NCBI RefSeq assembly: GCF_963921235.1
Contig: NC_086097.1
Span: 65,474,001-65,538,000, forward strand
Direction: 5' to 3'
Length of the DNA: 64,000 nucleotides
Source: Mobula hypostoma
Lineage: Eukaryota
In this document: positions 10,874 to 62,437 of the stretch, in pieces
How positions within the stretch are numbered: position 1 is the first letter of the stretch
Layout of the letters: each line of letters starts with the position of its first letter
Position numbers and translations under genes: made by a program
Notes under the pieces: generated by a model
The model's database searches: none
What the model saw: only the letters and a program-made list of their open reading frames with translations
Told to the model about the DNA's origin: nothing

Positions 10874-10934
10874 CATGAACATAGAACAGTACAGCATATT
10901 ACACGCCCTTCAGCCCACAATGTTGCACCGACCC

Positions 10935-13806
10935 TCAAACCCTGCCTCCCATATAACCCCCCCACCTTAAATTCCTCCATATACCTGTCTAGTAGTCTCT
11001 TAAACTTCACTAGTGTATCTGCCTCCACCACTGACTCAGGCAGTGCATTCCAAGCACCAACCACTCTCTGAGTAAAAAACCTTCCTCTAATATCCCCCCT
11101 GAACTTCCACCCCTTACCTTAAAGCCATGTCCTCTTGTATTGAGCAGTGGTGCCCTGGGGAAGAGGTGCTGGCTAGCCACTCTATCTATTCCTCTTATTA
11201 TCTTGTACACCTCTATCATGTCTCCTCTCATCCTCCTTCTCTCCAAAGAGTAAAGCCCTAGCTCCCTTCATCTCTGATCATAATGCATACTCTCTAAACC
11301 AGGCAGCATCCTGGTAAATCTCCTCTGTACCCTTTCCAATGCTTCTACATCCTTCCTATAGTGAAGCGACCAGAACTGGACACAGTACTCCAAGTGTGGC
11401 CTAACCAGAGTTTGACAGAGCTGCATCATTACATCACGACTCTTAAACTCTATCCCTCGACTTATGAAAGCTAACACTTCATAAGCTTTCTTAACTACCC
11501 TATCTACCGGTGAGGCAACTTTCAGGGATCTGTGGACATGTCCCCCAGATCCCCCTGCTCCTCCACACTTCCAAGTATCCTGCCATTTACTTTGTACTCT
11601 GCCTTGGAGTTTGTCCTTTCAAAGTGTACCACCTCACACTTCTCCAGGTTGAACTCCATCTGCCACTTCTCAGCCCACTCCTGCATCCTATCAATGTCTC
11701 TCTGCAATCTTCAACAATCCTCTACACTATCTACAACGCTACCAACCTTTGTCTCATCTGCAAACTTGCCAACTCACCCTTCTACCCCCACATTCAGGTC
11801 ATTAATAAAAATCACAAAAAGTACAGGTCCCAGAACAGATCCTTGTGGGACTAGTCACAACCCTTCAATCTGAATGTACTCCCTCCACCACGACCCTCTG
11901 CCTTCTGCAGGCAAGTCAATTCTGAATCCACCTGGCCAAACTTCCCTGGATCCCATGCCTTCTGACTTTCTGAATAAGCCTACTATGTGGAACCTTGTCA
12001 AATGCCTTACTAAAATCCAAGTAGATCATATCCACTGCACTACCCTCATCTATATGCCTGGTCACATCCTCAAAGAACTCTATCAGGCTTGTTAGACACG
12101 ATCTGCCCTTCACAAAGCCATGCTGACTGTCCCTGATCAGACCATGATTCTCTAAATGCCCATAGATCCTATCTCTAAGAATCCTTTCCAACAGTTTTCC
12201 CACCACAGACGTAAGGCTCACTGGTCTATAATTACCCGGACTATCCCTACTACCTTTTTTGAACAAAGGGACAACGTTTGCCTCCCTCCAATCCTCCGGT
12301 ACAATTCCCGTGGACAACGAGGACATAAAGATCATAGCCAGAGACTCAGCAATCTCTTCCCTCGCCTCGTGGAGCAGCCTGGGGAATACTCCCCCAGGCC
12401 CCAGGGACTTATCCATTCTAATGTATTTTAACAACTCCAACTCCTCCTCTCCCTTAATATAACATGCTCCAGCACATCAACCTCACTCATATTGACCTCA
12501 CAGTCATCAAGTTCCCCCTCACTGGTGAACACCGAAGAGAAGTATTCATTGAGGACCTCGCTCACTTCCACAGCCTCCAGGCACATCTTCCCATCTTTAT
12601 CTCTAATCGGTCCTACCTTCACTCCTGTCATCCTTTTGTTTTTCACATAATTGAAGAATGCCTTGGTGTTTTCCTTTACCCTACTCACCAAGGCCTTCTC
12701 CTGCCCCCCTTCTTGCTCTTCTCAGCCCCTCCTTAAGCTCATTTTTTGCTTCCCTATATTTCTCAATAGACCCATCTGATCCTTGCTTCCTAAACCTCAT
12801 GTATGCTGCCTTCTTCCACCTGACTAGGTTTTCCACCTCACTTGTCACCCATGGTTCCTTCACCCTACTATTCTTCATCTTCCTCACCGGGACAAATTTA
12901 CCCCTAACATCCTGCAAGAGATCTCTAAACATCGACCACATGTCCATAGTACATTTCCCTGCAAAAACATCATCCTAAATCACACCCACAAGTTCTAGCC
13001 TTTTAGCCTTATAATTTGCCTTTCCCCAATTAAAAATTTTCCTGTCCTCTCTGATTCTTACCTTTTCCATGATAAATGCTAAGGGCCAGGGAGTGGTGGT
13101 CACTGTCCTTCAGATGCTCCCCCACTGAGAGATCTGTGACCTGACCCAGTTCGTTACCTAGTAATAGATCTAGTATGGCATTCCCCCTAGTCGGCCTGTC
13201 CACATACTGTGACAGGAATCCGTCCTGGACACACTTAACAAACTCTGCCCTATCTAAACCCTTGGACCTACTCAGGTGCCAATCAATATTAGGGAAGTTA
13301 AAGTCACCCATGATAACAACCCTGTTATTTTTGCACCTTTCCAAAATCTGCCTCCCAATCTGCTCCTCTGTATCTCTGCTGCTACCAGGGGGCCTATAGA
13401 ATACTCCCAATAGAGTAACTGCTCCCTTTCTGTTCCTGATTTCCACCCATACTGACTCAAAGGTTCCTGCTGCATTATCCACCCTTTCTGTAGCTGTAAT
13501 AGTATCCCTGACCAGTAATGCCACCCCTCCTCCCCTTCCCCCCTCTCTATCCCTTTTAAAGTACTGAAATCCAGGAATATTGAGAATCCATTCCTGCCCT
13601 GGTGCCAGCCAAGTCTCTGTAATGGCCACGACAGCATAAGTCCATGTATGTATCCAAGCTCTCAGTTCACCAACTTTGTTTCCGATGCTTCTTGCATTGA
13701 GGTACACACACTTTAGGTTACTACCTTTACACCCTTTATTGTGGTTCTCTTTCTGCAAAGCCTCTCCATATGTTAGATCTGGCTTTCCTCCATGCATTTC
13801 CTTCAC
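10935..13806 (-). pseudogene. CR1 ORF2: APE endonuclease plus reverse transcriptase, with several frameshifts and stops
   Basis: YLNARSI, ITETWL, GVFYRPP, MGDFNFP, SDH (APE); NYRPVSLTS, QHGF, YLDFSKAFDKVPH (RT). Confidence 0.96.
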
Positions 13807-13841
13807 TGCTCTATTGCTCCGGGTCCCATCCCCCTTGCAAG

Positions 13842-14779
13842 TTAGTTTAAACCCTTCCGAACCATGCTAGCAAACCTACCTGCAAGGATGTTGCTCTCCC
13901 TCGCGTTCAGGTGCAACCCATCCAATCTATACAGGTCCCACCTTCCCCAGAAGAGATCCCAATGATCCAAAAATCTAAAACCCTGCTCCCTGCACCATCT
14001 ACTCAGCCACGCATTCAACTGCCATCTCCTCCAATTCTTACCATCACTGTCACATAGCACTGGCAGCAATCCTGAGAATGCCACCCTTGAGGTCCTGTTC
14101 TTCAGCCCTCTGCCTAGTTGCCGAAACTCACACTTCAGGATCTCATCCCTCTTCCTGCCTATAGCATTGGTATCAATATGTATCACGACTTCTGGTTGCT
14201 TTCCCTCTCATACCAGGATGTCGTGCACCTGGTCAGAGACATCCAAGACCCTGGCACCCGGGAGGCAACAAACCATGCGGGTGTCCTTCTCACATCCACA
14301 AAATCTCCTGCCTGCTCCCCTGACTATAGAGTCTCCAATGATGACAGCTCTCCTCTTCTATGTCCCACCCTTCTGCACCAGAGTCAGACTCAGTGCCGGA
14401 GGCCCTGCCACCGTGGCTCACACCTGGTTGGTCGTCCCCGCCAACAGTATCCAGGACGGTAAACTTATTATTCAGGGGAATGGCTACAGGGGTGCTCTGG
14501 ACTAACTGTCTGCTCACCTTCGCTTTCCCCCCTCTGACTGTCACCCAACGACCTGCTTCTGGCAGCCTCGGTGTGACTACCTCCCTGTAGCTCTCACCTA
14601 TGACTGCCTCATTCTCCCTTATGAGTTGAAGGTCATCCAGCTGCTGCTCCAGATTCCTTACACGGTCTTCCAGATTGCCCAGCCGTATGCACTTCTGGCA
14701 GATGTGACTCTGCGGGAGAGGGTCGTTCCCCCAAGACTGCCACATCTCACAAGAGGCACATCACCGTCTCAGAAGGCAT
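13842..14779 (-). pseudogene. CR1 ORF1: zinc finger / leucine zipper / SGNH esterase-like, frameshifted
   Basis: ATG at 14779; CQKC...LEDRVRNLEQQLDDLQL coiled coil; esterase blocks IHIDTN and DGLHLN. Split over several frames. Confidence 0.92.
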
Positions 14780-24474: not shown

Positions 24475-25664
24475 ATATAGATGAGGGTAGTGCAGTTGAT
24501 GTGATCTACATGGATTTTAGTAAGGCATTTGACAAGGTTCCACACGGTAGGCTTATTCAGAAAGTCAGAAGGCATGGGATCCAGGGAAGTTTGGCCATGT
24601 GGATTCAGAATTGGCTTGCCTGCAGAAAGCAGAGGGTCGTGGTGGAGGGAGTACATTCAGATTGGAGGGTTGTGACTAGTGGTGTCCCACAAGGATTGGC
24701 TCTGGGACCTCTACTTTTCGTGATTTTTATTAACAACCTGGATGTTGGGGTAGAAGGGTGGGTTGGCAAGTTTGCAAACGACACAAAGGTTGGTGGTGTT
24801 GTAGATAGTGTAGAGGATTGTCGAAGATTGCAGAGAGACATTGATAGGATGCAGAAGTGGGCTGAGAAGTGGCAGACGGAGTTCAACCCGGAGAAGTGTG
24901 AGGGTGTACACTTTAGAATGACAAACTCCAAAGCAGAGTACAAAGTAAATGGCAGGATACTTGAAAGTGTGGAGGAGCAGAGGGATCTGGGGGTACATGT
25001 CCACAGATCCCTGAAAGTTGCCTCAGAGGTAGATAGGGTAGTTAAGAAAGCTTACGAAGTGTTAGCTTTCATAAGTTGAGGGATAGAGTTTAAAAGTCAT
25101 GGGGTAATGGTGCAGCTCCACAAGACTCTGGTTAGGCAACACTTGGAGTACTGTGTCTAGTTCTGGTCGCCTCACTATAGGAAGGATGTAAAAGCATTGG
25201 GAAGGGTACAGAGGAGATTTATCAGGATGCTGCCTGGTTTAGAGAGTATGCATTATGATCAGAGATTAAGGGAGCTAGGGCTTTACTCTCTGGAGAGGAG
25301 GAGGATGAGAGGAGATATGATAGAGGTATACAAGATATTAAGAGGAACAGATAGAGTGGACAGCCAGCGCCTCTTCCCCAGGGCACCACTGCTCAATACA
25401 AGAGGAGATGGCTTTAAGGTAAGGGGTGGGAAGTTCAAGGAGGATATTAGAGGAAGGTTTTCTTACTCAGAGAGTGGTTAGTGTGTGGAATGCACTGCCT
25501 GAGTCAGTGATGGAGGCAGATACACAAGTGAAATTTAAGAGACTGCTAGACAGGTATATGGAGGAATTTAAGGTGGCAGGGGTTATATGGGAGGCAGGGT
25601 TTAAGGGTCAGCACAACATTGTGAGCCGAAGGGCTTGTACTGTGCTGTATTGTTCTATGTTCTA
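24475..25664 (+). mobile_element. 5'-truncated CR1 (RT to 3' end), same subfamily as 10876-15015 and 58705-62437
   Basis: ORF 24501-25079 reads YMDFSKAFDKVPH...GVPQG...FANDTK; ends gttctatgttcta. Confidence 0.97.
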
Positions 25665-26389
25665 AATTGGGCATTGGCTTAAGTCAATATTGTTTTTGTT
25701 TGGACATGAATGATCCACAAAACTGAAAATATTTGCACACAATATTAACAAGTCATTTGTTTTCTCTGAAAGTAAGCACAATGTCTTGCCATACGTAAAT
25801 TTATGTTCACATAAATAACCTGTATTATATATAAAGTACTACCTCATGTGTACAGGCACACAAACATTACAGGAAATCCTCTCCCATCCTTTACAAAAAA
25901 AAACAAATTATCCAATAAAACTGCCTATTTGCTGTCATTTAGAGAACTTTGAATGTTTAAAATTGTCCTGATCAACTGCCTAACCCTGGCAGAAATGCTG
26001 TTTATGCATCCAAGTAGGCGTCCACCAAAGTTATGGTGACCAATTACAGAAAACTCCAAAGGTAACAACATTATTCCCAGGTCAGTGTTGCAGATTGACA
26101 GCTGAGATGATTGTGAATTGTGTATGATGTAAGAGCCCCAGCAAGTAAAAGAATCATGGTTAGATACAACATTTCTAAATGCAGTATATGGAAAAAAATA
26201 AGAATTAAGCATTATGCACAAGGAAATAGATGTAATAAACACACGTTTTATTCTGTACATATTTCTCAAACAAGTCCATTCTTAATGTTTCCAGTGTACC
26301 AAAATTATTACTTATTTTGTAGTTTTACTGACAACTATAATCAAGTGCATCTCAGTTCACTAGAAACTCTGTAGTTCCATTTAAGCACT

Positions 26390-29890: not shown

Positions 29891-30149
29891 GCAGCAAGAG
29901 TCCTTGAAAGTGAGTCCATAGGTTGTGGAAACAGTTCTCCAAATTGACTAGTGCAAATAAATTACAGGTGAACCCCCCCCCCCCAACCCAACCCCCAATG
30001 TTATGGCTCTTATGGTTACAGAAATTCCCCGTTACAGATGTCAAAATCACAGCCTAAAAATTTGAAATGGGGAATTAAATTCATTCTTATTGAATTAATG
30101 TGAACTAAAGTGAAGCCTAGTGTCATGAAAATAGCCATTCCCTCAATGA

Positions 30150-30685
30150 CTGTTGAACAAACGGTCATTGACTTCAGGAAGGTAGAGGTGTGGCAATGCA
30201 CGTTCCTTTTTACATCAATAGTGCTGAGGTCAAGGAGGTTGAAATCTTCAAGTTCCTAGGATGAACATCACCAATAGCTTGTCCTGGTCCAAACACAAAG
30301 ATAGCAAAGACAAGAAAGTGCATTAGAGCTTCAACTTCTGCAGGAGGCTAAATAAATTCGGCATGTCCTCTTTGATCCTCACCAATTTTTAAAGGTTTAC
30401 CATAAAAAGCATTATGATCTGGATGCATGATGGTTTGATATGGCAACTGTTCTGCTCATGACTGCAAGCAATTGCAGAGAGCTGTGAACACTATTAGTAC
30501 ATCATAGAAACAACCTCCCCTCCATAGACTCTGTCTACACTTCTCACTGCATTGATAAAGCAGCGTCAGAATCAAAGACCCCACCCAATCCCAGACATTC
30601 TCTTTTCTTTCCCTTCCCATCCAGCAGAAAAACCTGAAAGCATGTACCACCAGGCTCAAGGACAGCTTCTATCCTGCTGTAATAA
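30150..30685 (+). mobile_element. Rex1/Babar 3' coding fragment
   Basis: Decayed VIDFRK, WFDMATVL/YGNCS region, LQRAVN and TTRLKDSFYPAVI motifs. Confidence 0.82.
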
Positions 30686-31352
30686 GAAGAGAGAGGAGGA
30701 GGGGTACCAGCGGGAGGTGATAGGCGGGTGAGAAGAAAAGATTGAGTGAGAGGGAAGCCAGAATGTGGAATGGAAAAAGGGAGGAAAGAGAGAGGGGAGA
30801 AATTACCATAAGAGAAATCAATGTCCATGGTGTCTGGTTGCAAGCTAACCAAACAGAATATGAGGTATTGCTCCTCCAACCAGAGAGTGGCCTCATCATG
30901 GCAGTAGAGGAGACAATGGACATGTTGAAATGGAAATGGACAGTGGAATTAAAACGGTTGGCCACTGGAAATTCCTGCTTGTGCTGATGGAGTGAAGGCA
31001 CGACAATCAAGGACCTTCGCTCCATCTGCAACAGTCAAGCACCTTTGTTCTGTCTGCAACCTTTTTACTCCTCCTTTCTAATGACTTGCTTATCATCTCC
31101 CTCTGGTGCTTCTCCTCCTTACCTTTCTCCCATGGTCCAGTCTCCTCACCTACCACCTTCTAGCTTGTACTCCTTCATCATTCCCACCTCCTTATTCTAA
31201 CTTCTTACCTCATCCATTCCACTAATGATGAAGGGTCTCAGCCCAAAACATTGGCTCTTTATTCCTCTCCACAGATTCTGCCTAACCTGCTAAGTTCCTC
31301 AAATATTTTGTGTGCGTTACTCTGGATTTCCAGTTTCTGCAGAATCTTGAGT
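30686..31352. mobile_element. Penelope-like relic with inverted arms (minus about 30686-31030; plus about 31070-31352)
   Basis: Minus ORFs PVANRFNS and EEQYLIFCLVSLQPDTMDIDFS (end of the GIY-YIG ORF). The plus arm carries the decayed hammerhead tgatgaagggtctcagcccaaaac. Confidence 0.82.
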
Positions 31353-31779
31353 TTAAAATTAACACAAAACTTGTTTTATTCAACTTATCTGTCTTAATGT
31401 GTGTGCAGTTGATGCAGCTGTGCATCAGGGAAAAGCTCAAAACTGACTACCTACTAGGACCACATACCCCTACACAAAATGCAAGATTGTCTGTATGAGG
31501 GAAAATTAATAGTGCTGTTAGAAAGTTTCCTGATTTCTAGAGCTATTGAAAGTGAACCATCATACTTCTGGTAAAGTGAAGCAATTCTTACATATCTGAA
31601 ATATATTCATTCTCAATTATTCTCATTTCAGCAAAAATATCTAAATATGTGATCTAGCTACAAAAATGTCCCATGTGCATTCCTAAACTAGTGAAAGGGT
31701 GCAAACTTTTTATTAAATATATTAAGAGTAGTTCTTATGAAGGATCCCAGCAAATAGTAATAGAATCATACAGCTTAGA

Positions 31780-32020
31780 AAAAGGCACTTCTGTCACCAA
31801 TTGCTCCCTGACACCATCTTTACACTAAATCAATTTTATTCTCCCAACATTCCCATCAATTTTGGACCATGAATTCCCACACTCCTGAGATTTTATCATT
31901 CACCTGCAATGTTTGGGATGAGGCGAGAAAACACAGAATCCAGAGGATACCTAACCAATCAGAGAGAAGGTGGAAACTACACAGAGAATGGAGAGTGAGA
32001 ACTTCTCAACCAATTCCTAT
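31780..32020 (-). mobile_element. Degenerate V-SINE-like element
   Basis: tgtttgggatgaggcgagaaaacacagaatccagaggatacc...gagaaggtggaaactacacaga resembles the V-domain reverse complement. Confidence 0.55.
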
Positions 32021-32114
32021 CCACGTATGCAAAGGCTCGTCAACAAATGGTTCACAAGACTGCTTGAGAGTCCAGATAATGCAAAATGTTTACGTCACAC
32101 TGGATTTGTATATA

Positions 32115-33048
32115 AAACATAGAACATCAACTAGTACAGCACAAGCTAATGCACATTGGCCCACATGCCAAGAAATCACAATACAAATTTATATTTGCCA
32201 GCACATGTTCAACATTCCTCCATTCCTTGCCTATCCATGTGTTTATTATACATTACGCCTCTTAAACATTATCATATATGCTTCCACTATTTCCCCTGGC
32301 AATATGTTGCAGACAGCTACCACTCTGTAAAACAAAAACTGCCACTCAGATCACTTTTAAACTTCCCACCCTCACCTTAAAGTTATGGCCTCTAGTATAT
32401 GACATCTCCATGCAGGGATAAAAGACTATTTACTCTATATAGTCTATCATCTGTTCTGTCAGCCTGCAACGCGCAACAGAAGATCTTCCAAGGTTGTCCA
32501 ACCTCTCCTTACAGCTAATGCTCCCTAATCCAGGCAACGGCACAATGAATCCTTTGTGTGCCCTGTACAAAACCTTCATGCCCATCACAGAATGCCATGA
32601 CAATACACAATACTCCAAATGTAGACTAATCCAAGTTTTATATAACTGAAACATAACTTGCTGACTTTCATATTCAACACACTGACTGAAGGAGGTAGGG
32701 CCATTGTATGCCTTTTTACCACCCTATCTATTTGTATTGCCACACTTACAATTCTGCCAATATTTGTGTCATCCGCAAACTTATTCAGCAACCACCTAGA
32801 TTTCTGTCTAAGACATTCATATATAATCACAAATAAGTGTGGAGCAGCAGCGATTGTTGACACCACTAGTCATATGCTTTCAATCAGAATAACACTGTCC
32901 TGTCTTTCTGGCCAAGACGATATTGAACCCAGTCTAACAAGCCTCCATAGATCTCATATGCCTTAATCTACTGGATCAGCTTACCATGTGGTACCTTTTT
33001 GAAAGTTTTACTAAAACACATGTATACAATATCCACTGCACAACTATC
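32115..33048 (-). mobile_element. Old CR1 3' portion with deletions
   Basis: NKFADDTNIG and QLYKTWISLHLEYCV motifs; aaacatagaaca tail at about 32115. Confidence 0.9.
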
Positions 33049-33702
33049 ATATAGATCAGGAGGCAGATTTCTTTTTAAAAAAGGACACTAATGAATGCAG
33101 TTTTTACATCAATCCAATAACTTCATTGTTGCTTTATGTTTTTCCTTCTGCATTTTAATAACTGAATTCTATAGGCATAATTTACCATGCTAGGATTAAA
33201 AATAAACATCTCCAAATTATTAGCAAGGCCCATTGCAGCAGTACTCCAGAAACATAGATGACACTTAAGTATATCAATTTACAAGTGTGAGAATAAGAAG
33301 CACATATTTAATCCACAATGCATATAATAAGTAAAACATTCAAAGTCATATCAAAAATTCTTATGAACTATGCAACTAATTTGTTAAAGTTCTTACACTG
33401 TCTTTGTACCTTTCATTTTTGTCGCATTATACTAATTTAAAGTATAATTAATACACTGTCATATAACTGCAACTTCTGTCAAATAGATTTAATAGGGGTC
33501 ATCAGCTTATAATAGATTCTTCAAAAATGTGAAAATGTGTGAAAGAATAAACAGCAGAGCTAAAGAAATGAGGGGAGAATGTGACTCCACTCTTGGGAGC
33601 TGGCATAGATACAATGGCTTTTTTTATATATACTGTAGTAAGTAAATATTACTTCGTGGAATATTAAAATCCCTTTTACTTCTACCCTCATAATGTACTT
33701 TT

Positions 33703-33807
33703 CCATAAGACCACAGGACATCAGAGCAGAATTAGGGTATTCAGTACATTCAGTCCGCTCCACCATTCCATCATGACTGATTTATTATCCCTCTCAACCT
33801 CAATCTC
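33703..33807 (-). mobile_element. CR1 3' end fragment
   Basis: ccataagacca...gagcagaattagg...gctccaccattccatcatg is the reverse complement of the 3' end seen at 34915-35012. Confidence 0.8.
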
Positions 33808-34053
33808 ATTTTCATCAACAATTCAAACATCTTTTATAATAAACAGAAGATTGTGATTTTTTAAAAATTTATTCCACAATTTTAGAAAAGTATGAATTAT
33901 TACATGGCAGTGCAATGAACATGTGAAGGCAAAATTCAAGTAATCACCTGAGTGTTTAACAGTGATGGTAAACATATTTCCATGGATGAAGTACAATTGG
34001 TAGTATTTCTTAAAACTGTGTAATCAAGAGAATGAGGAAGTAAAATACATTTT

Positions 34054-34115
34054 AGAAACATAGAAAACCTAGAGCACAATACAAGCCCGTCGGCCCACAA
34101 AGCTGTGCTGAACAT
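34054..34115 (-). mobile_element. CR1 3' end fragment
   Basis: agaaacatagaaaacctagagcacaatacaagcccgtcggcccacaaag. Confidence 0.8.
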
Positions 34116-34804
34116 CTTGTTTTAGAAAATTTCTTTGAACTGATTATTGAAAAACAAAAATCAGCAAATTAATTGTGAGATAAAGAGAAAGTATACATTA
34201 CACAACTCAAACTTAGTTTAACCAATGTAAGTTCACCAAGAATTTAATTCATTGATATTTTATTCTCTGTTCCAAAATCCCATGATGTCTTGCATGCAAT
34301 TTTAGATCTTGAATAGAGTAAATGAAATTGTGCCAGAATTGTATATATTTCATGTGCAATTTTCATCCCATTAAGCTGGTGTAAAAGACCAGAAAAATTA
34401 ACACAGAACTGGTATTTATGCAGATAACCCTAAAGAGGGTTAGCTATTTAAAAAGTACAGAACACCAATCAAGATGGCTTCAGGACATGTTCCTCTATGG
34501 ATACCGCCAAGAAAAAATAAAGAACAAGGAAAAAGAACCTTCATAATCATGCTTGCATTAGAAGTTTTATAGTTTTTTTTTTAATGACTATAACTTTTGA
34601 GTATAATCAAAGTTATTGATAGATTTAAGGAGTTGGTTTGAATACTACTGCAGTTTCTGGTTTTGTATCACATGCAGTAGCCAATTCAGAAGTAAGACTG
34701 AGTCAGGATTAAGCAGAAAGCAATCTAGAGCTTGAGCAGTTAAAATCAGCAGTGACAAGCGAAAGATGGAAAAGATAATGGAAATGGAGACTTGCACCAA
34801 GGAT

Positions 34805-35012
34805 AATGTGGTGAATCTGTGGAATTCACTGCCACAGATGGCTGTGGAGACCAAGTCATTGGGTATACTTAAAGCAAAGGTTGATCAGTAAGGTTACAGA
34901 AAGAAGGCAAGAGAATGGGATTGAGAGAGATAAAAATCTGCCATGATTGAATGGTGGAGCAGACTCAATGGGCCAAATAGCCCAATTCTACTCCAATATT
35001 TTCTGGTCTTAT
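34805..35012 (+). mobile_element. CR1 3' end fragment
   Basis: gtggtgaatctgtggaattcactgccacag...tggtggagcagactcaatgggcc. Confidence 0.85.
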
Positions 35013-35400
35013 AATGGCATCTCTTCTTCTAAATATTAGACAGCTATTCACCTTTCCACCTTTGATATGAGAAATTCGTACACTATGAGAACACAATAAA
35101 AATCAAATCACATAAAATCATTTATTATGTGTCTATATTTTATACTTTAGCATTAATGTGCCAATTGATACTCTATGTATTTAAGTAGTGCATACAGAAG
35201 TTTCAGCAAACGATAAATATGCCACAACATATTCATATCCCATACATGAGAAATTCTGCAGATGCACTTTCCTGTAATGTTTTGCATTACACTGTATCTC
35301 CTTCTTAAGGGAAAAAATACTAATTACTATTTAAGCACACTGAACTTAAATTTACACCTCTACTTCCAAAGTAAAATTTAAAGTCAATATGCTATTCTAA

Positions 35401-35540
35401 CTCAGATCAGGCAGCATCTATGAAAATGAATAAGGTCAACATTACAGACGAGAAGAGTCTTGTACCAAAACGCTGACTGCTTATTCATTTCCGTAGATGC
35501 TGCCTGACCTGTTGAGTTCCTCCATCATTTTGAGTATGTG
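35401..35540. mobile_element. Miniature Penelope pLTR fold-back: inverted arms around a decayed hammerhead
   Basis: cagatcaggcagcatctatgaaaatgaataag (from 35403) is inverted to cttattcatttccgtagatgctgcctgacctg (to about 35511). Confidence 0.8.
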
Positions 35541-35690
35541 TTAATATGCAATTCTGTTGAGACCTTGCCTTCAAATTAAAAACAAGGAATAAGTGTAAAA
35601 ATGCTTTTGAAGTTATTTTTTGACTTATTCAAAAAAGTGCTTGCAACTTCCGCAATCCACACATCAAATCTCACTTATATAACATGTATG

Positions 35691-36261
35691 GTTGACATCC
35701 ATCTGTCTCGAAGGACAATGGGTAATGATGATGATCATCACAAGCCTAGGCAGATGGTATGGAGATCCCGAGATGCCCATTCATCGACCCCCCTCTCGGC
35801 CTCACCAGCATAGTCCAAAGGAAAGCTTATGAAGCAATATGTCTGGCACCAGTTTGGCTGCAGGAGCTCCTGGAACAATGTTCAGTGATGTCCAGATGCC
35901 TCAGGTACTCCACTCTGGATTTGCTGCCTGAGTTTACTCCCGTAGCCTTCGTCTCTCCTGAAGCTGCCCACAAGGCAGTGGGGAGTCTGGGAATCTGTAG
36001 CTGGGAATCTGGTTCACGAGCACTGGAGCGTGCCCACACACTGGTGGGCCTGGGAGCTACGTGTGCAGGGGCCAGACCTCCTCCTCATCCTCCGTAATTC
36101 AACCCAAGACCGAAAGGAGCTCAGCTTCTGTGGGTTGCCAGTGAGGAGGCACTACATGAGGCTTGCTGTTGGAGAGGCTATGTGTTGGTAGGGAGAGACT
36201 TGCACATTCAGTTCTCCTTTTCGCAAGACTGCTTGTCACTCTCACTTTCAGCTTCCACCAC
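35691..36261 (-). mobile_element. Non-autonomous Ingi/Vingi-type retroelement, apparently 5'-complete, no ORF
   Basis: Minus-strand motif gccttgtgggcagc...gaaggctacgggagtaaac...aaatccagagtggag resembles Vingi 5' regions (from memory). HDV-like fold at the 5' end; 3' end shared with 36263-36509. Confidence 0.65.
36089..36261 (-). ncRNA. Degenerate HDV-like ribozyme, probably inactive in this copy
   Basis: P2 cctcatgtagt/attacggagg; P3-L3 gcc-tcctcact-ggc; P1 3' strand aacccac; P4 aagctgag/ttcggtctt; J4/2 gggttga. The domain order is correct, but P1 is only partly paired and the catalytic C position is T. Confidence 0.6.
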
Positions 36262-36262
36262 T

Positions 36263-36509
36263 GGCTAGCAGTCTTGGAGTGGAGCCCCTAAGGCGGCTGG
36301 ATGACATTGAATATCCTCCCAGCAGTTCCTGCATCCAAGCCGGTGCCAGATGTATTGCTTCATAAGCTTTCCTTTGGATGACACTGGTGAGGCCGAAAGG
36401 GGGATCTTGATGACTGGGCATCTCATGATTTCCACGCCTTCCGCCCAGGTTTGTGATGATTATCTTCATCCATTGTCCTTCGATACAGACAGATGCCAAA
36501 CAACAACAA
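36263..36509 (+). mobile_element. 5'-truncated second copy of the same Ingi/Vingi-type element, (AAC)n tail
   Basis: Inverted homology to 35691-35920, including the identical block tattgcttcataagctttcctttgga; ends ccattgtccttcga...gatgccaaacaacaac. Confidence 0.8.
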
Positions 36510-37086
36510 ATAATTATTTTGAACGAATGCAAACCAATCCTGAGGATGACTTCAAAGTCTTGAAAATGGATCTTCAGCTTGCTTAATTCAAATATTGCTG
36601 ATGATTTTCAGACATCACATCTAGATTTTTAGATGGGTACAGTAAAGCAGACCCAAATAATACCCTGATTATTAATTCATGGATACAATGTTCTAATTAC
36701 ACAGGAATCCCAAAGGTGATCTCTCCAAAGGTTGCTGCTGAATTAACATCCCTCAAAGACATCTTCTATTCACAAGTTTAAAAACAGTTCTGCAGGAGAG
36801 TATTAGGTTTCAAACTCATCTTCTGTTCTTTCTTCTGTTGCCCTTCACCAGCTCAACTGCACCCCACCGAAAATTTCAATTGCTATTCAGCAGTCTTCAG
36901 GCTGAACAAAGCAACAACATCCTCTCAAGAGAGTCAAGCAAAAGTCTCTCAGTTCTTTCCTTGCCATTTATGAATTCAGAAAAATGAACTATTTTTCCAT
37001 CCCATTTGAAAAGGTTTTATAATTTCTGTCTCTACTGTGACAGTTTTCTATTTCATCAGTGTTAATTTGGACTATTTATACAAATT

Positions 37087-37790
37087 ATCTGAACTCAAAG
37101 GGCACCGATATCCTTGCGGGAAAGTTTATTGGAGCTGATTGGGAGGCTTTCAACTAATTTGGCAGGGGATGATAACCAGATTGATAGGGCTGATTGTGGG
37201 GCAGTTGATAGACAAGTCAATGCAGTATGTAGTGAGACTGTGAAGGTTAGACAGATGATTGGGCAAAATCGCAGTCAGTGGTAAGAGTTGAAGTGTAACA
37301 TGGGGCAAAATCAAAAAGGCTGATGAACACAGGATTCATGGTGTTATATCTGAATGAACACAATATACGGAGTAAGTTAGATGATCTTTGAGCAGAGTTA
37401 AAGATCTGTAGGTATGACGCTGTGGTGTTACTGAGTTGTGGCTAAAAGATCATACACGGAAGTTCAAAATCCAAGGATACACATTACATCAAAAGGACAA
37501 GGAGGTATGCAGAGGGGGTGGAGTGGCTCTATTGGAGACACGTGATAAAATAGGCCAAAGTCAGCAAGGCTTCCTTAAGGGGAAATCTTGCCTGACAAAA
37601 TCTGTTGGAATTCTTTGAGAGAGTAACAGGCAGAATAGACAAGGGACAGTCACTGGATGTTTAATTAGATTTTTAAAAAGTCTTTAACAAGGTGCCATAC
37701 ATGATGCTACTAAACAAAATAAGAACCTACAGTATTACAGAAAAGATGCTTAATTTATGGAATTCATTGCCACAGATGGCTTTGAAGGAT
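37087..37790 (+). mobile_element. CR1 relic with two large internal deletions (ORF1 end and APE / RT / 3' region)
   Basis: ORF 37436-37618 fuses the APE motif RGGGVALL directly to the RT motif ETRDKIGQSQQGF. A second jump at about 37750 leads to atggaattcattgccacag. Confidence 0.85.
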
Positions 37791-38040
37791 TGTCACAACT
37801 CACTATGCTCCCTAACATGGCCTTAAAGTTAAAGTTGGTTGGTGCCTTGTAGGTGCTCTAAGTTGCAAGACCACTTCTGCCACAATGGACTGTGGACCAA
37901 AATTCATGGGAAGCAAACCTTTTTGAAAGTGTGTGCCCAAACTGGCGATAATCTAAACAAAATCTCTCACATGCTATGCAACACACATCAAAGTTGCTGG
38001 TGAACACAGCAGGCCAGGCAGTATCTCTAGGAAGAGGTAC

Positions 38041-38076
38041 AGTCGACGTTTCGGGCCGAGACCCTTCGTCAGGACT
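38041..38076 (-). ncRNA. Minimal type I hammerhead ribozyme of a Penelope pLTR (core intact)
   Basis: Minus strand AGUC-CUGACGA-A-GGGU-CUCG-GCCC-GAA-ACGU-C-GACU: stem I AGUC/GACU, stem II GGGU/GCCC, palindromic ACGU stem III, GUC cleavage triplet. Confidence 0.85.
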
Positions 38077-38832
38077 AACTGATGGAAGAGCTAGTAAGAG
38101 ATTTGAAAGTGGGAGGGGGAGGGGGAAGATCCAAAATGATAGAAGACAGAGGGGGAGGGATGGAGCCAAGAGCTAGACAGGTGATTGGCAAAAGGGATAT
38201 GAGAGGATCGTGGGACAGGAGGCCCAGGGAGAAGGAAAAGGGTGGGGGGAACCCAGAGGATAGGCAAGGGGTATAGTCAGAGGGACAGAGGGAGAAAAAG
38301 GAGAGAGAGAGAGAAAGAATGTGTGTATATAAATAAATAAATAATGGATGGGGTACGAGGGGGAGGTGGGGTATTAGCGGAAGTTAGAGAAGTCAATGTT
38401 CATGCCATCAGGTTGGAGGCTACCCAGACGGAATATAAGGTGTTGTTCCTCCAACCTGAGTGTGGCTTCATCTTTACAGTAGAGGAGGCCATGGATAGAC
38501 ATGTCAGAATGGAAATGGGATGTGGAATTAAAATGTGTGGCCACTGGGAGATTGACTTATTTACATACACACATTCTTTCTCTCTCTCTCTCCTTTTTCT
38601 CCCTCTCTCTCCTTTTTCTCCCTCTGTCCCTCTTACTGTACCCCTTGCCCATCCTCTAGGTTCCCCCCCCCCTTGTCTTTCTCCCTGGGCCTCCTGTCCC
38701 ATGATCCTCTCATATCCCTTTTGCCAATCACCTGTCCAGCTCTTGGCTCCATCCCTCCCCCTCCTGTCTTCTCCTATCATTTTGGATCTCCCCCTCCCCC
38801 TCTCAAATCTCTTACTAGCTCTTCCTTCAGTT

Positions 38833-38868
38833 AGTCCTGACGAAGGGTCTCTGTCTGAAACGTCGACT
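38833..38868 (+). ncRNA. Second minimal hammerhead copy, stem II weakened
   Basis: agtcctgacgaagggtctctgtctgaaacgtcgact. The core is intact but stem II is GGG/UCU (two G-U pairs). Confidence 0.7.
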
Positions 38869-40681
38869 GTACCTCTTCCTAGAGATACTGCCGGGCCTGC
38901 TGCGTTCACCAGCAACTTTGATGTGTGTTGCTTGAATTTCCAGCATCTGCAGATTTCCTCGTGCTTGTGTTTTACTCTCACATGCTATGGTAACTTTTTA
39001 ATCAGAGGTTATGATTGATTACTCAATTGCTAACAATAATTATGAATTTTGAAGGAAAAACAATGAGTCCTGATGCTTATTTACATGTATTCATTATTTT
39101 ACTATTAATAAAAGAACATACACTCGTACAAATTGATAGAAATTAAGTATTTTAGAAAATCTGTTAATAATTATTTACATTAATCTTTTTAAAAGGCTAT
39201 TGAAAAAATCACATCTTTCTAAATAGCATTGTTATTGTCCCTCAACACAAGAAAGGGGAATATGAAATTTTAAATTTTGGTACATATTCATGAAAAATCA
39301 AGGAAATATATATGTACTTTACTTCCACTGAAATTTATGATGCTGCACTAATGATGACAAATATTTTGTATCTGGTTTATATTTGGTTGTTTTGAGAGCT
39401 TTGCACATAGTATGAGTTTATTCAGCAAGTCTACTCCTATAATTAGATCTAACCAAGTTCATCAAAAAAACAATGACTCACACGAATATGTCAATGTAAA
39501 TACTTGAAATATTGGCATTGCAAAATTTTTCAGAGAGTTAAAAGTTTAAGGAATGGAATTCCAGAGTTCCAAACCCTCACTATGGGTTTTATGCTTTGAT
39601 CCAGTCAGGAGCAGTTTTTTTTTCATATTTTCTAGTTCAACTCTTAAATTGGCAAATTTTGCCTCCAAATTATCCTGTTTTGTAAATTAATTAATTGGAT
39701 TTAAAAATCATACAAATCAATCCACTACTGTACATTTCCAAATTTAGTTTCTCTAATGTTACACTGACTGCATACTTTATAAAATTTGCAGTTTCTTCAA
39801 ATGACCTGAGCTGAGCGAATGTTAAAGAAAATTGTTGGAAGTTGAACCAACTAGGCTCCAGAGTTGTGCTGGAAGACTGACTGTCTTTCTAGGTATTTCA
39901 ATATCTATCATATAGTATTTTAGGTTTAGTATATTTAAAAGTGTAAATTTTGGCATTACATTTAAATATTTCCAGTTTGACTTCAAAGGCTTTCATATTA
40001 CTGAACATAATATCAAGATTTTTGTCAGATCCCTGTAATTTGATGTCTAACACATCCTTCAGCCAGGTTCCAGACGTCTTGCACAGATGAGGAATTATAG
40101 CAAAGGCAAATTAGCCTGCAAGATAACTTAGGAATGAGTCTCTAAATGTTGTTCCCATTACATGCATCATATCTGAATTAATTAATGGCGCTTCAAAAAC
40201 AATTATTCATTCCCTTCACTGTTCAGGGAAAGTACACCCCTGCCACACCTCCCCCAAATATATTTGTAGTCTTTTAATATAGACAGCAGCATTATTTATT
40301 TGATGCTTTTATCAGCAAAAGTTTATGTTTTTAAATCACTTTTTTTTCTGGATTTCTCTATTTAACATTTTTACAGTTAAACATATTGCTTTTCTTTGCG
40401 AAATGCACTTCCACAGTTTATGACACATTAATTTTCTCAGGGAGTAAGAATGAAATGCTCCTCTCCCTCATATTGACATAGTTTACTATGTTATCCGAAT
40501 GTTAAATGGCTAATTTAGATTAATATTATTATTACTTTGAATACCACTGAAGTAGTTTTCACTACTTGGAAGCATTATGCATTTATCTTATTAAAATGAA
40601 TACACAGTAAGTTATTCAGAAAATGATAACAAACTTAATGTTCATTTTTTTTTTGTTTATTTCTTTTTCTCCCTAATGCTG

Positions 40682-40907
40682 GGCATGTGGCCGAGTGGTT
40701 AAGGCGTTCATCTAGTTATCTCAAGGTCGCTAGTTCGAGCCTCAGCTGCGGCAGCATGTTAGTGCCTTGATCAAGGCACTTAATCACACATTGCTCTAGT
40801 CTGTGCGAGAAGTGGCGCCCCACATAGACTTCCAATCTGCGCCTTGTAAGGCATGAAAATGTCCGACGCAGGCCTCTCATGGTTTGAGTCAACGTTCCCT
40901 CCCTCCC
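40682..40907 (+). mobile_element. tRNA-derived CORE-SINE with a different tail, ending in (CCCT)n
   Basis: A box tggccgagtgg (40688-40698), B box gttcgagcc (40733-40741), CORE ccttgatcaaggcacttaatcacacattgctct; TSD tccctaatgctg/tccccaatgctg at 40670-40681 and 40908-40919. Confidence 0.9.
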
Positions 40908-41424
40908 TCCCCAATGCTGCTCCATTACATTGTCATCATTGCTCAGGAGTGTGATAAAATACTTCCACTACCTAGATGACTGTAACTAGTTTAATGGCAA
41001 GTAGCTCAACATCAACCAGCCAAAAGTTACTTACTTGATTGGTACTCCATCTGCCAAATGAAATTTGCATCCTCTCTACCACCAGCACTGAGATTTATAG
41101 GTCGCAAAGCAATAATTCACCAAGGCTTCATCATAGTACCTAATCACATCAGAAGTCAGAGATGACAGATGCATGCGAATACTGCACTCAAAGCTCCCCT
41201 GCAAATGACACACAATCTGACTTTGACAAAACAAACATCACTTTTTTCTTTATACTTGGGTAAGAATTCTGAAGCTTTGCCTGACCATTATGGGTACTTG
41301 ACTTCATAATGGCATTGGTAACACTGGACAACAAAGATTTTGCTTCCTGAATACTTGTGGGGTGTGTCTTAGGAATGTTGGGCTGCTGATCATGAAAATC
41401 ACCAAGAAATTTCCCCATCACTCA

Positions 41425-42130
41425 CTATTTGTTTGGAAATCGACTATATTTGTTACAACAATTCATAACTCAAGTCAGAATAACCTATGCCAAGATTAAG
41501 AATGACACTTTTGTTGGTCCACAAATCAAACAGATTATCAATGACAGGCAATTCAAAGAACTTCTAGTGGGACCAGAGAAAATCACATGGAAAGCATTCA
41601 AGGATGTTGTTGAAAATCTTCTTGGCAACTATAGACACCAAACTATAGTATGTGCAGCTGGTTGACAACATGCTTCAAGCACACAAAGCCATGAAGTGCA
41701 ACATAAAGGGCAAACATTCCTTTTCTATATTCTCATTTAGACCTCTTCCTTGCATATCTTGTCACCATCAGTGATAAGAATGGTGCAAGGTTTCACCAGC
41801 ACATTGCGGTCATGGGGAAAACGGTATCGGGGCAACTGGAATCCATCAATGCTGGCTGATTATTGTTGAACACTGGGTACAAATGAAAATGATCAACATT
41901 TTTAGTTTAGTTGAACTATTGCAAAGTGTCAGCACAGTTATGCAATTAAACACATTATATTCAATAAAAGTTAATTTCTTGTTTCTCCAAATTCCTACAT
42001 GGTACAAGTAATCTGAAAATATTTGTGTTCAGCTTCTACAAGTAATCTGGAAATATTTGTGTTCAGCTTCAAGCAGTCTATCATAAATTTAAAAAACTCT
42101 GAGAAACACTTAAAAAAATTGTAATCCAGT
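41425..42130 (+). mobile_element. Chapaev3-like (CMC) DNA transposon 3' fragment with decayed transposase C-terminus
   Basis: AKIKNDTFVGPQIKQII...EKITWKAFKDVVENLLGNYR, then decayed YSHLDLF, SDKNGARFHQHI and RYRGNWNPSMLADYC. The right end ...cagtg is followed by ta; no left TIR seen. Confidence 0.8.
42003..42070. repeat. Tandem duplication, 2 x 34 bp, inside the Chapaev3 3' region
   Basis: tacaagtaatctg(a/g)aaatatttgtgttcagcttc twice. Confidence 0.97.
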
Positions 42131-44628: not shown

Positions 44629-46240
44629 AAAAACCTACAGCACAATACAGGCCCTTGGGCCCACAATGCTGTGCCAAACATGTACTTACTTTAGAAATTA
44701 CCTCGGGTTACTCATAGACTTCTGTTTTTCTAAGCTCCATGTACCTATCCAGGAGTCTCCTAAAAGATCCTATTGTATCTGACTCCACCACAGTTGCTGG
44801 CAGCACTCACCACTCTCTGCGTAAAAAAACTTACTCCTGACATCCCCTCTGTACCACCTTCCAAGCGCCTTAAAACTGTGCCCTCTCATGTTAGCCATTT
44901 CAGTCCTGGGAAAAAGCCTCTGACTATCCAAATGATCAATGCCTCTCATCATCTTATACATGTCTATCAGGTCACCTCTCATCCTCTGTCACTCCAAGGA
45001 GAAAAGGCCAAGTTCATTCATCTTATTCTCATAAGGCATGCTCCCCAATCCAGGCAACATCTTTGTAAATCTCCTCTGCACCCTTGCTATAGTTTCCACA
45101 TCCTTCCTGTAGTGAGGTGAGCAGAACTGAGCACAGTACTCCAAGTGGGGTCTCACCAGGGTCCTATATAGCTGCAACATTACCTCTTGGCTCTCAAATT
45201 CAATCCCACAGTTGATGAAGGCCAATACACCGTATGCCTTCTTAACCACACAGTCAACCTGCGCAGCAGCTTTGAGTGTCCTATGGACTCGGACCCCAAG
45301 ATCCCTCTGATCCTCCACACTGCCAAGAGTATTACCATTAATACTATATTCTGCCATTATATTTGACCTACCAAAATGAACCACCTCTCACTTATCTGGG
45401 TTGAACTCCATCTGCCAATTCTCAGCTCATTTTTGCACCCTATCGATGTCCCGTTGTAACCTCTGAAAGCCCTCCACACTATCCGCAACACACCCAACCT
45501 TTGTGTCATCAGCAAATTTATGAACCAATCCCTCCACTTCCTTATCCAGGTCATTTATAAAAATCACGAAGAGTAAGGGTCCCAGAACAGATCCCTGAGG
45601 CACTCCACTGGTGACTGACTCCCATGCAGAATATGACCTGTCTGCAACCACTCTTTGCCTTCTGTGTGCAAGCCAGTTCTGGATCCACAAAGCAAGATCC
45701 CCTTGGATCCCATGCTTCCTCTCTTTCTCAATAAGCCTTGCATGGGGTACCTTATCAAATGCTTGCTGAAATCCATATATACTGCATCTACTGCTCTACC
45801 TTCATCAATGTGTTTTGTCATATCCTCAAAAAATTCAATCAGGCTCATAAGGCACGACCTGCCTTTGACAAAACCATGCTGATTACTTCTAATCATATCC
45901 TGCCTCTCAGGATCTTCTCTATCGACTTACTAACCACTTAAGTAAGACTCACTGGTCTATAATTTCCTGGGCTATCTCTACACCCTTTCTTGAATAAGGG
46001 AACAACATCTGCAACCCTCCAATCCTCTGGAACCTCTCCCATCCCCCCTGATAATGCAAAGATCATTGCCAAGGTCTCAGCAGTCTCCTCCCTCGCTTCC
46101 CACAGCAGCCTGGGATACATCTCGTCCGCTCCCAGTGACTTATCCAACTTGATACTTTCTAAAACCTCCAGCACATCCTCTTTCCTAATGTCTATATACT
46201 CAAGCTTTCCCATCCACTACAAGTCATCCCTACATTCACT
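44629..46240 (-). mobile_element. 5'-truncated CR1, third subfamily
   Basis: NYRPVSLT, QHGFVKGRSC, GVPQGSVLGP, FADDTK and VRPHLEYC motifs; 3' end aaaacctacagcacaatacaggccc. Confidence 0.97.
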
Positions 46241-46433
46241 TTGGAAGGACAAACTCCAAGGCAAAGTACAAAGTAAATGGCGGGATACTTGGTAGTGTGG
46301 AGGAGCAGAGGGATCTGGGGGTACATATCCACAGATCCCTGAAAGTTGCCTCACAGGTAGATAAGGTAGTTAAGAAAGCTTATGGGGTGTTAGCCTTCAT
46401 AAGTTGAGGGATAGAGTTAAGAGTCGCGAGGTA
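46237..46433 (+). mobile_element. Tail-less internal ORF2 fragment of the young CR1 subfamily
   Basis: Close match to about 24909-25105 (cactttggaaggacaaactccaaggc...gagggatagagtt); no 3' UTR. Confidence 0.92.
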
Positions 46434-47673: not shown

Positions 47674-48146
47674 TGTCACGTACCCCGTGACAGGGGTTAA
47701 GAAACCAGCAGAGATGGAAAAACACTTTGGAGTCTTGTATTGCTATAAACAACTAATATTTATTAGTAACTATGCAATACAGTAATATCAATGTAAATAA
47801 ATCACGCAGGTTAGCAATGATTATATATAAAAGTAAGTGTGGAATATATATGTATGAAAACCAAGCTTTTTTAAGTCTAGGGGTAAAAAAAATAGTCTTA
47901 CGATGTTGAGTAAAATCCAGTTCATGGTATTTAGTTGAGTAGTGATGGAGACAGCGAGAGAGAGCGAGAGCGAGAGAGAGAGAGAGACAGCGAGAGAGAG
48001 AGAGAGACAGCGAGAGAGACAGAGAGACAGCGAGAGAGACAGAGAGACAGCGAGAGAGACAGAGAGACAGCGAGAGACAGAGAGACAGCGAGAGACAGCG
48101 AGAGACAGAGAGACAGCGAGAGAGAGAGACAGAGAGAGAGAGAGAC

Positions 48147-48179
<33 letters not shown>

Positions 48180-48814
48180 CAGAGAGACGAGTCGAGTCGA
48201 GTCTTCAGGTGAGCTGATGCCGTCGATCTTCTCGTCGTCCTCTGAAATCCTTTACAAGTCACCGACTGTGACTTTAACCGGGGGGACCGGTCTTCTGTGG
48301 TGGAGCTATCACCCAGGCGAGGGTGGACACATAGACAACTTCCCACCAGTCAACCCCTTCTTCACCGATGGAGTAGCAATTTGGATCGATCCACCCGATC
48401 GATCCTCCAAAGCCCACTTTTCCTGCGGGCACAACAATGCTCATTCAGTGTCCAGATCATGTGTCTGAGGTCTGTATCATCTGACCTCCCATTTATTTCA
48501 CCAGGCTGAGCATCACCTGTCATTCAGAGTCCCTCCTTCCTTTGTCTGTAAAGGAGTGCACAAGCAGGCAACAAGTCCTTGAAGAAATATCAACAATTTG
48601 CCTTTGATCACCATAGCAACCTTCGAGCTGCTCGGTGCTGTCTCCATCTCCAAACTCAGTAGAAATCCAAAGTTACTTCCAATGCCTTAAAGTGACAGTC
48701 CAACTGTTAATCTTCGTCTCTCTCTCTCTCCTTTCCAAACAAACCATCAATGATGAATGTCTCTCTCTGTCTCTCTTCAAACAGTTAATAGGGGCACTCC
48801 TGGATCCTCTCACA
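47674..48814 (-). mobile_element. Solo LTR (1141 bp), probably Gypsy-type
   Basis: TGT...ACA termini; 4 bp TSD atac at 47670-47673 and 48815-48818; AATAAA on the minus strand near 47760; no adjoining internal region. Confidence 0.85.
47948..48200. repeat. Compound GA/GACA/GACAGC microsatellite inside the LTR
   Basis: Repeating gagagacagc / gagagaca units ending in (gagtc)3. Confidence 0.97.
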
Positions 48815-58650: not shown

Positions 58651-58704
58651 ACCCCAGCCTAATTCTAACAATGGCTTACACTCAGGACTTCACAGCCAAA
58701 TTTT

Positions 58705-61700: not shown

Positions 61701-62437
61701 CTGGTTCCCCTCCCCCTACAAATCTAGTTTAAACCCCCCACAGCAGCACAAGTAAACCTTCCCGCAAGGATGTTAATCCCCCTCCAGTTCAGGTGCAACC
61801 TGTCCCGTTGGAACAGGTCCCATCTTCCCTGGAATAAGGCCCAATTGTCCAGAAACATGAAGCCCTCCCTCCTGCACCAACTCCTTAGCCACCTATTTAG
61901 CTGCATTATCTTCCTATTTCTAGCCTCACCAGCATGCGGCACAGGTAGCAATCCTGAGATTGCAACCCTGGAGGTCCTGTCCTTCAACTTTGCACCTAAC
62001 TCCCTAAATTCTCTTTGCAGGACCTCCTCCTTCTTCCTATCCACGTCATTGGTCCCTGCATGGATCACAACACCTGGCTGCTCACCCTCCCTCTCGAGAA
62101 CACTGAGAACTCAATCCGAGATATCGCAGACCCTGGCACCAGGGAGGCAACAGACCATCTGGGATTCTCGATCTCTTCCACAAAACCTCTTATCTGTCCC
62201 CCTAACTATCGAATCCCCTATTACTACTGCTCTCCTCTTTTCCCTCCTTCCCATCTGAGCTGAGGGTCCAATCTCGGTACCAGAGACACAACCATTGCAA
62301 CTTGTCCCTGGTAGATCGTCCCCACCAACAGTATCCAAAACGGTATACTTATTATTGATGGGAACGGCCACAGGGGTGCACTGCTCATTCTGTCTATTCT
62401 CTTTCCCTCTCCTGACAGTCACCCAGCTACCTGTCTC
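58705..62437 (-). mobile_element. CR1 LINE, 5'-truncated within ORF1, inactivated
   Basis: Esterase blocks VIGDSIVR, HAGTND and DRLHLN; APE YFNARSI and MGDFNFP; RT YMDFSKAFDKVPH and FADDT; tail tagaacatagaa. Confidence 0.97.

Follow-up and report, generated by a model that had tools for sequence, protein, structure and literature searches.

A retroelement copy on the minus strand of the window (the 64,000-nucleotide stretch of Mobula hypostoma DNA analysed here) is very probably a decayed, 5'-truncated member of a short non-coding RTE family whose head is a self-cutting, HDV-like ribozyme, a reading made from sequence comparison. Seen directly are the anatomy of the family, its coding partner, the target-site duplications, the conserved core, element starts at the first base of P1, and changes of P1 between lineages. 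Position names such as G1 and C75 follow HDV numbering. It is established that RTE, R2 and L1Tc elements carry HDV-like ribozymes (PMC6765202, PMC5786205, as far as the portions available extend), and the set-up itself, a ribozyme-trimmed front end of the RNA, is already known from insects and trypanosomes, so that the principle is a published one. A literature search on HDV-like ribozymes and RTE elements returned no account of the ray family, and Ruminski 2011 may list this family or a related vertebrate RTE.

In the window, all segments quoted in the preliminary description as parts of an HDV-like fold were located on the minus strand as described, with P2 a 10-bp helix carrying one bulge and a T at 36102 where the catalytic C is expected. 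The features of the copy and its surroundings, with ribozyme elements named as predicted, are as follows.

35689..36233, minus strand: main copy, from subfamily A of the ORF-less family derived from an RTE, covering family positions 89-635 of 640, 5'-truncated.
36165..36171, minus strand: P1.2 3' strand (helix closing the J1/2 domain of about 154 nt), 5' partner absent in this copy.
36151..36161, minus strand: 5' strand of P2, a 10-bp helix in which one A is bulged.
36137..36150, minus strand: P3, L3 and P3', with A at 36142, a CpG site at which the majority of the family has G.
36130..36136, minus strand: P1 3' strand, two changes relative to family GACACAC, 5' partner absent in this copy.
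36128..36129, minus strand: P1.1 3' strand, AG where the family majority has GG.
36104..36124, minus strand: P4 stem-loop.
36099..36103, minus strand: J4/2, with T at 36102 in place of the predicted catalytic C.
36089..36098, minus strand: P2 3' strand.
35899..35964, minus strand: RTE 5'-UTR stretch; counted by eye, it agrees at 53 of 66 bases with positions 134-199 of RTE-12_AMi in the Kojima 2018 supplement.
35689..35746, minus strand: point where the 5' UTR meets the 3' part, followed by the RTE 3' tail common to the coding copy L134, with a CAAC unit at the end.
36230..36276, plus strand: inverted piece of the family J1/2, family positions 52-98, 2 differences in 47, containing GUGG.
36277..36510, plus strand: second partial copy in the opposite orientation, family positions 404-637.

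The main copy shows 65 differences from the family in 545 aligned bases, or 12% from the majority sequence, compared with a median of 9% among 43 full-length subfamily A copies. With its start at family position 89 it has lost the 5' strands of P1 and P1.2, and it cannot work, since it has no P1 5' strand, its catalytic C is replaced by T, its L3 G by A, and its P1.1 is broken. The suspicion that this copy is dead is thus borne out, P1, P1.1, the L3 G, the catalytic C and G1 all failing. Attribution of the L3 and P1.1 changes to CpG decay also fits the family, in which 33 of 85 copies have A at each of these CpG sites. In the available portion of PMC3774820, C-to-U abolishes cleavage in a silkmoth R2 ribozyme and the L3 G matters, so that the catalytic C and L3 changes in the window are of kinds that abolish or impair R2 ribozyme cleavage. 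The same losses of P1 and the catalytic C, together with the 12% divergence and a context of RTE UTR and tail, leave hardly any room for a functional ribozyme kept by the host, as in CPEB3, or for a delta-virus relic; the near identity of P3/L3 to the quoted HDV motif is what such readings have in their favor, but Eickbush 2013, in the part available, credits active-site identity of this kind to convergence.

Contrary to the preliminary description, GUGG (36261-36258) is not a strand of P1, because it sits in the 47-base piece 36230-36276, which is inverted relative to the family and to most of the other 29 loci. Likewise, a J1/2 of about 95 nt gives way to a family J1/2 of about 154 nt, P1 having been lost here by truncation. 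(The J1/2 of R2 ribozymes may exceed 700 nt, according to the portion of PMC3774820 available.) None of the 40 scored candidates was another copy joining the inverted piece to the 3' arm, and in four contig sets from sequencing runs, all rich in family copies, no listed piece bridges the inversion joint. The second partial copy is 79% identical to the 3' part of the main copy, giving an inverted repeat of about 230 bp. The two arms have decayed independently: they share 3 of 25 changes, two of them at CpG sites, and a recent fold-back duplication was rejected on this count. In 35689-36510 as a whole, where two partial copies stand head to head, one joint has a 4-base overlap and 10 bases of family sequence are duplicated. 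The arrangement resembles the product of twin priming without a flanking duplication; the evidence does not show a simple twin priming event at a clean site, there being no duplication between the outer flanks, where the longest direct repeat is 6 bases.

Other repeats accompany this copy. A long, near-perfect inverted repeat with GA/TC-rich parts (arms of 144 and 168 bases, 94%) lies at 37978-38931, a tandem array of 8-12 base units at 47900-48223, and copies of a longer interspersed repeat with frames of 180-280 codons at 10877-14105, 24475-25666, 44630-46418 and 58700-62000, presumably a CR1-type LINE.

The P3/L3 segment was said to be one base off HDV, and a single match to the quoted 14-mer, with one mismatch, indeed occurs in the window and none in 100 dinucleotide shuffles. 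A loose descriptor of shape only (P2, P3, L3 and RG, with neither P1 nor the catalytic C) found 3 matches in the window, where 150 shuffles averaged 0.4 and 47 of them held at least one, so that such a match is not rare. The folding z of the core was -1.2, and an Rfam scan of positions 30000-42000 reported no ribozyme, an HDV-type match being absent also from three other loci (L011, L181, L151); a likely reason is the long J1/2 insert. Sequence identity of the window copy to the HDV motif is therefore beyond chance and the fold of this copy alone is not. Since the loose descriptor is weak and Rfam silent, the copy could not by itself settle the ribozyme question, and the family was examined. 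That the resemblance arose by chance in a GC-rich UTR, with no ribozyme present, draws on these descriptor matches in shuffled DNA, on the Rfam negative and on the absence of covariation within the family. It is nonetheless very improbable and largely refuted already by the absence of the 14-mer from 100 shuffles, and by the P1 complementarity at independently defined ends and the successful blind compensatory prediction described below.

From 117 loci with the core, 2 duplicates were removed and 30 picked by core pattern were set aside, leaving 85 copies, a few near-duplicates still among them. At the site of window T36102 the family has C in 77 of these 85 copies not selected on the core, and the conserved A of J4/2 is found in 82. 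The GG expected to pair with the L3 CC in P1.1 is likewise a family feature, its second G (G39) occurring in 80 of 85 copies and its first (G38) in 50, with A at this CpG in 33; the L3 G is present in 48, again with 33 A at a CpG. Copies retain pairing at 740 of 820 cells in P2, 227 of 247 in P3, 495 of 572 in P4 and 519 of 587 in P1.2, and overall 88.9% of cells are paired compared with 32-42% for slid partners, under a structure taken from the majority sequence, which favors it. The domain order claimed for the HDV double pseudoknot thus holds at family level, P1-P2-P3-L3-P3'-P1'-P1.1'-P4-J4/2-P2', with P2, P3 and P4 paired. An unconstrained fold of the majority sequence returns P1.2, P2, P3 and P4 with pair probabilities of 0.71-0.99, P1.2 being a 7-bp helix that closes a 154-nt J1/2. 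Folding z-scores, which do not count pseudoknots, were not significant (+0.5 for the whole head, -1.4 for the core). All core criteria were passed by 1 of the 85 unselected copies, in a test that penalized B copies for a one-column misalignment, and 1 of 30 subfamily B copies passed the core test without P2. Non-CpG sites of the core are less diverged (48/922 vs 1054/13434), a difference not to be trusted because copies were chosen by matches spanning the core. Three copies with the same core and a different P1 strand were considered as a new family and rejected, their strings lying 1-3 places off that of the family.

The true partner of the strand that follows P3 is the first 6-7 bases of the element. 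The expectation that full-length copies begin at the predicted G1 was upheld by the ends of target-site duplications in both subfamilies. Subfamily B starts with GTGTGTC, giving a perfect 7-bp P1 (GUGUGUC/GACACAC); G occupies G1 in 20 of 30 copies, flanks upstream are unrelated, and among 19 testable copies all 13 duplications found end no more than 2 bases from G1 (control 2). Subfamily A starts with GGTGTC (first G in 39 of 57 copies), and 23 of its 26 duplications end no more than 3 bases from G1 (69 A and B copies tested, control 4). Its P1, however, counts 5 pairs that are sure and a sixth, that of G1, only if an A is bulged; the best duplex leaves G1 unpaired at 5 bp and -6.2 kcal/mol, compared with -9.1 for B. 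The predicted 7-bp P1 therefore stands for subfamily B, and for subfamily A, to which the window copy belongs, it is reduced to these 5-6 pairs. At independently defined ends, P1 complementarity amounts to 7 Watson-Crick pairs (6e-5 on a uniform background). Exact matches to the 5'-end pattern number 150 for A and 35 for B, the two patterns differing slightly. As a separate observation, T precedes G1 in 39 of 57 subfamily A copies and often lies within the target duplication; this T might mark pairing to an untemplated A at the end of the cDNA.

The imperfect P1 is the weak point of the ribozyme reading for subfamily A. It is possible, if rather improbable, that the 5' end of this subfamily is set by an internal promoter at the first base, with a ribozyme fold that is inherited and weak or dispensable, or with the two functions overlapping in the manner of Pr77. 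Such a promoter would accommodate the abundance of subfamily A despite its P1, a promoter and an HDV-like ribozyme share one 5' region in L1Tc and NARTc (PMC3383444, in the part available), and the accessible part of Kojima 2018 assumes polymerase II transcription of bipartite LINEs. It would, however, leave unexplained why, in every lineage examined, the first bases complement the strand after P3 and change with it. R2 ribozymes, moreover, tolerate 6-bp, mismatched and shorter P1 stems, 4 nt being among the lengths described (PMC3774820, in the portion available), and where cleavage coincides with the element end, ragged 5' junctions with short microhomologies are reported in the same source.

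Sister RTE lineages strengthen the case for a ribozyme that defines the 5' end. Family C, a younger RTE family with 3,727 candidates and an APE about 45% identical, has a sharp start, GGTTCC, that pairs with GGAACT after P3 (P1 GGUUCC/GGAACU, 6 bp), and its catalytic-site base is C in 30 of 30 copies, 13 of which pass all core criteria. In lineage C' the 6-bp P1 is GGCUCC/GGAGCU. As a blind test, 30 C' copies were picked by the 3' strand GGAGCT alone and a GGCTCC start was predicted; of the 27 copies with a 5' end (3 of the 30 had none), 18 showed the predicted C, at a position where family C has T in 29 of 30. Duplications end exactly before G1 in 16 of 24 C and 13 of 20 C' copies that have a duplication, with controls of 1 and 0. 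P1.2 also differs compensatorily between subfamily A and family C. Covariation, which the preliminary description had proposed as a check, was accordingly found between lineages, for P1 and P1.2, and not within the A/B family, where 36 hand-picked copies with 5' ends gave none and 418 of 500 shuffles scored as high. This within-family result, to be expected of neutrally decaying copies of one source, gives no support.

The heads of C and C' (L167-L196 and L233-L262; for example L181:1500-1670, plus strand) are HDV-like and P4-less; a 7-bp hairpin separates L3 from P3', and its stem changes compensatorily from one lineage to the other. A further RTE family, D (L149, L151, L152, L154, L155, L158; about 430 bases upstream of the match), has a shorter 5' end, and neither the descriptor nor Rfam found an HDV core in it. 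L232:810-3953, on the minus strand, holds a 1,048-aa frame free of interruptions that includes both an endonuclease and a reverse-transcriptase domain; no family C start motif was seen upstream of this frame.

The description of the family as ORF-less was correct: aligned copies are about 640 bases long, contain no ORF, end in a microsatellite tail and are flanked by target-site duplications. A first look at the 3.48-Gb genome gave 1,738 candidates, of which 40 were scored. The middle of the family carries the conserved RTE 5'-UTR motif described in Kojima 2018 (PMC5786205, in the part available). A decayed coding relative of 4 kb, L134, has the family head from its first bases as well as the family tail, an endonuclease-like frame and an RVT_1 match (E 1.2e-14); its APE gave no Pfam match and is matched at 45% to the L232 frame bearing both domains. 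Since head and tail are common to L134 and the family has no ORF, the family is a two-part, internally deleted RTE derivative, that is, the 5' UTR and 3' tail of an RTE LINE, or a bipartite non-autonomous RTE. The clade name depends on UTR identity with named RTEs and on single-ORF anatomy, not on an RT tree, and is to be read as a probable assignment. A SINE headed by tRNA or 5S was rejected, the head being common to a coding LINE from the first bases and Rfam scans giving neither a tRNA nor a 5S match. In subfamily B and C copies (L074-L103) the 5' UTR joins the tail at many different points, which suggests that internally deleted derivatives arise repeatedly, and subfamily A has one fixed junction.

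Taken as a self-cleaving element, the family was most probably propagated as follows. Read-through transcription would supply the source RNA, whose head would fold into a nested double pseudoknot and, by analogy with drz-Agam-2, be activated by the P1.2 helix and the long P2; the J4/2 cytosine would then make a Mg-dependent cut 5' of G1, which would free the element RNA from longer read-through transcripts, and RTE protein would copy the freed RNA into new sites in trans by way of the common tail. The closest likeness is to RTE HDV-like ribozymes and above all to drz-Agam-2-1 (PMC4908430), which, in the part of that paper available, is activated by a structured J1/2 and a long P2. Both have the (here predicted) cleavage site at P1's first base and the element's 5' end, a structured J1/2 closed by P1.2, a P1 of 6 or 7 bp and an extended P2 (10 bp in the ray family, 12 in Agam-2). 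Unlike known RTE ribozymes, those predicted for the ray family occur in a large animal genome, on mostly ORF-less carriers, and with a P1 that in subfamily A is shortened or bulged.

Non-autonomous elements with such heads have precedents. R2 SIDEs of Drosophila, formed by internal deletion, combine a 5' ribozyme, shown to self-cleave, with the 3' end of the parent LINE (PMC3414825, in the portion available), as the ray family is predicted to do; they are, however, rare and confined to 28S rDNA, whereas the ray family derives from an RTE and is dispersed in many copies. The short trypanosome elements that carry L1TcRz, NARTc among them, are also non-autonomous and have a reported 5' HDV-like ribozyme (PMC3383444, PMC4035085, both available in part), but NARTc belongs to the L1Tc/ingi clade and its compact 77-nt head doubles as a promoter. 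In its anatomy the ray family resembles RTE-N2_Lch, RTESINE2, WALLSI3 and Bov-A (PMC5786205, in part), with RTE 5' UTR, 3' tail, no ORF and a conserved 5'-UTR domain, and it is 80% identical over 66 bases to RTE-12_AMi of the same study. The available part of that paper goes as far as suggesting a ribozyme link for bipartite RTEs and gives them no structure, and neither of two core motifs was present in its supplement.

The ray family thus offers a testable and well-supported case in which a ribozyme is predicted to set the 5' ends of an RTE derivative that is ORF-less, dispersed and high-copy in a large animal genome. Kojima suggested that the LINE clades with a ribozyme head are those that give rise to two-part non-autonomous elements, the ribozyme permitting release from any host transcript; the ray family supports this, and it indicates that predicted HDV-like RTE heads escape Rfam. 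More tentatively, and with the balance tilted against it, the RTE lineages of this genome may carry interchangeable self-cleaving heads on a common scaffold, one large and HDV-like and one P4-less with an L3 hairpin, the bulged P1 of subfamily A, the most numerous one here, being a naturally tuned, slower variant. If so, insertions numbering in the hundreds to thousands would still owe their 5' end to a slow ribozyme in subfamily A.
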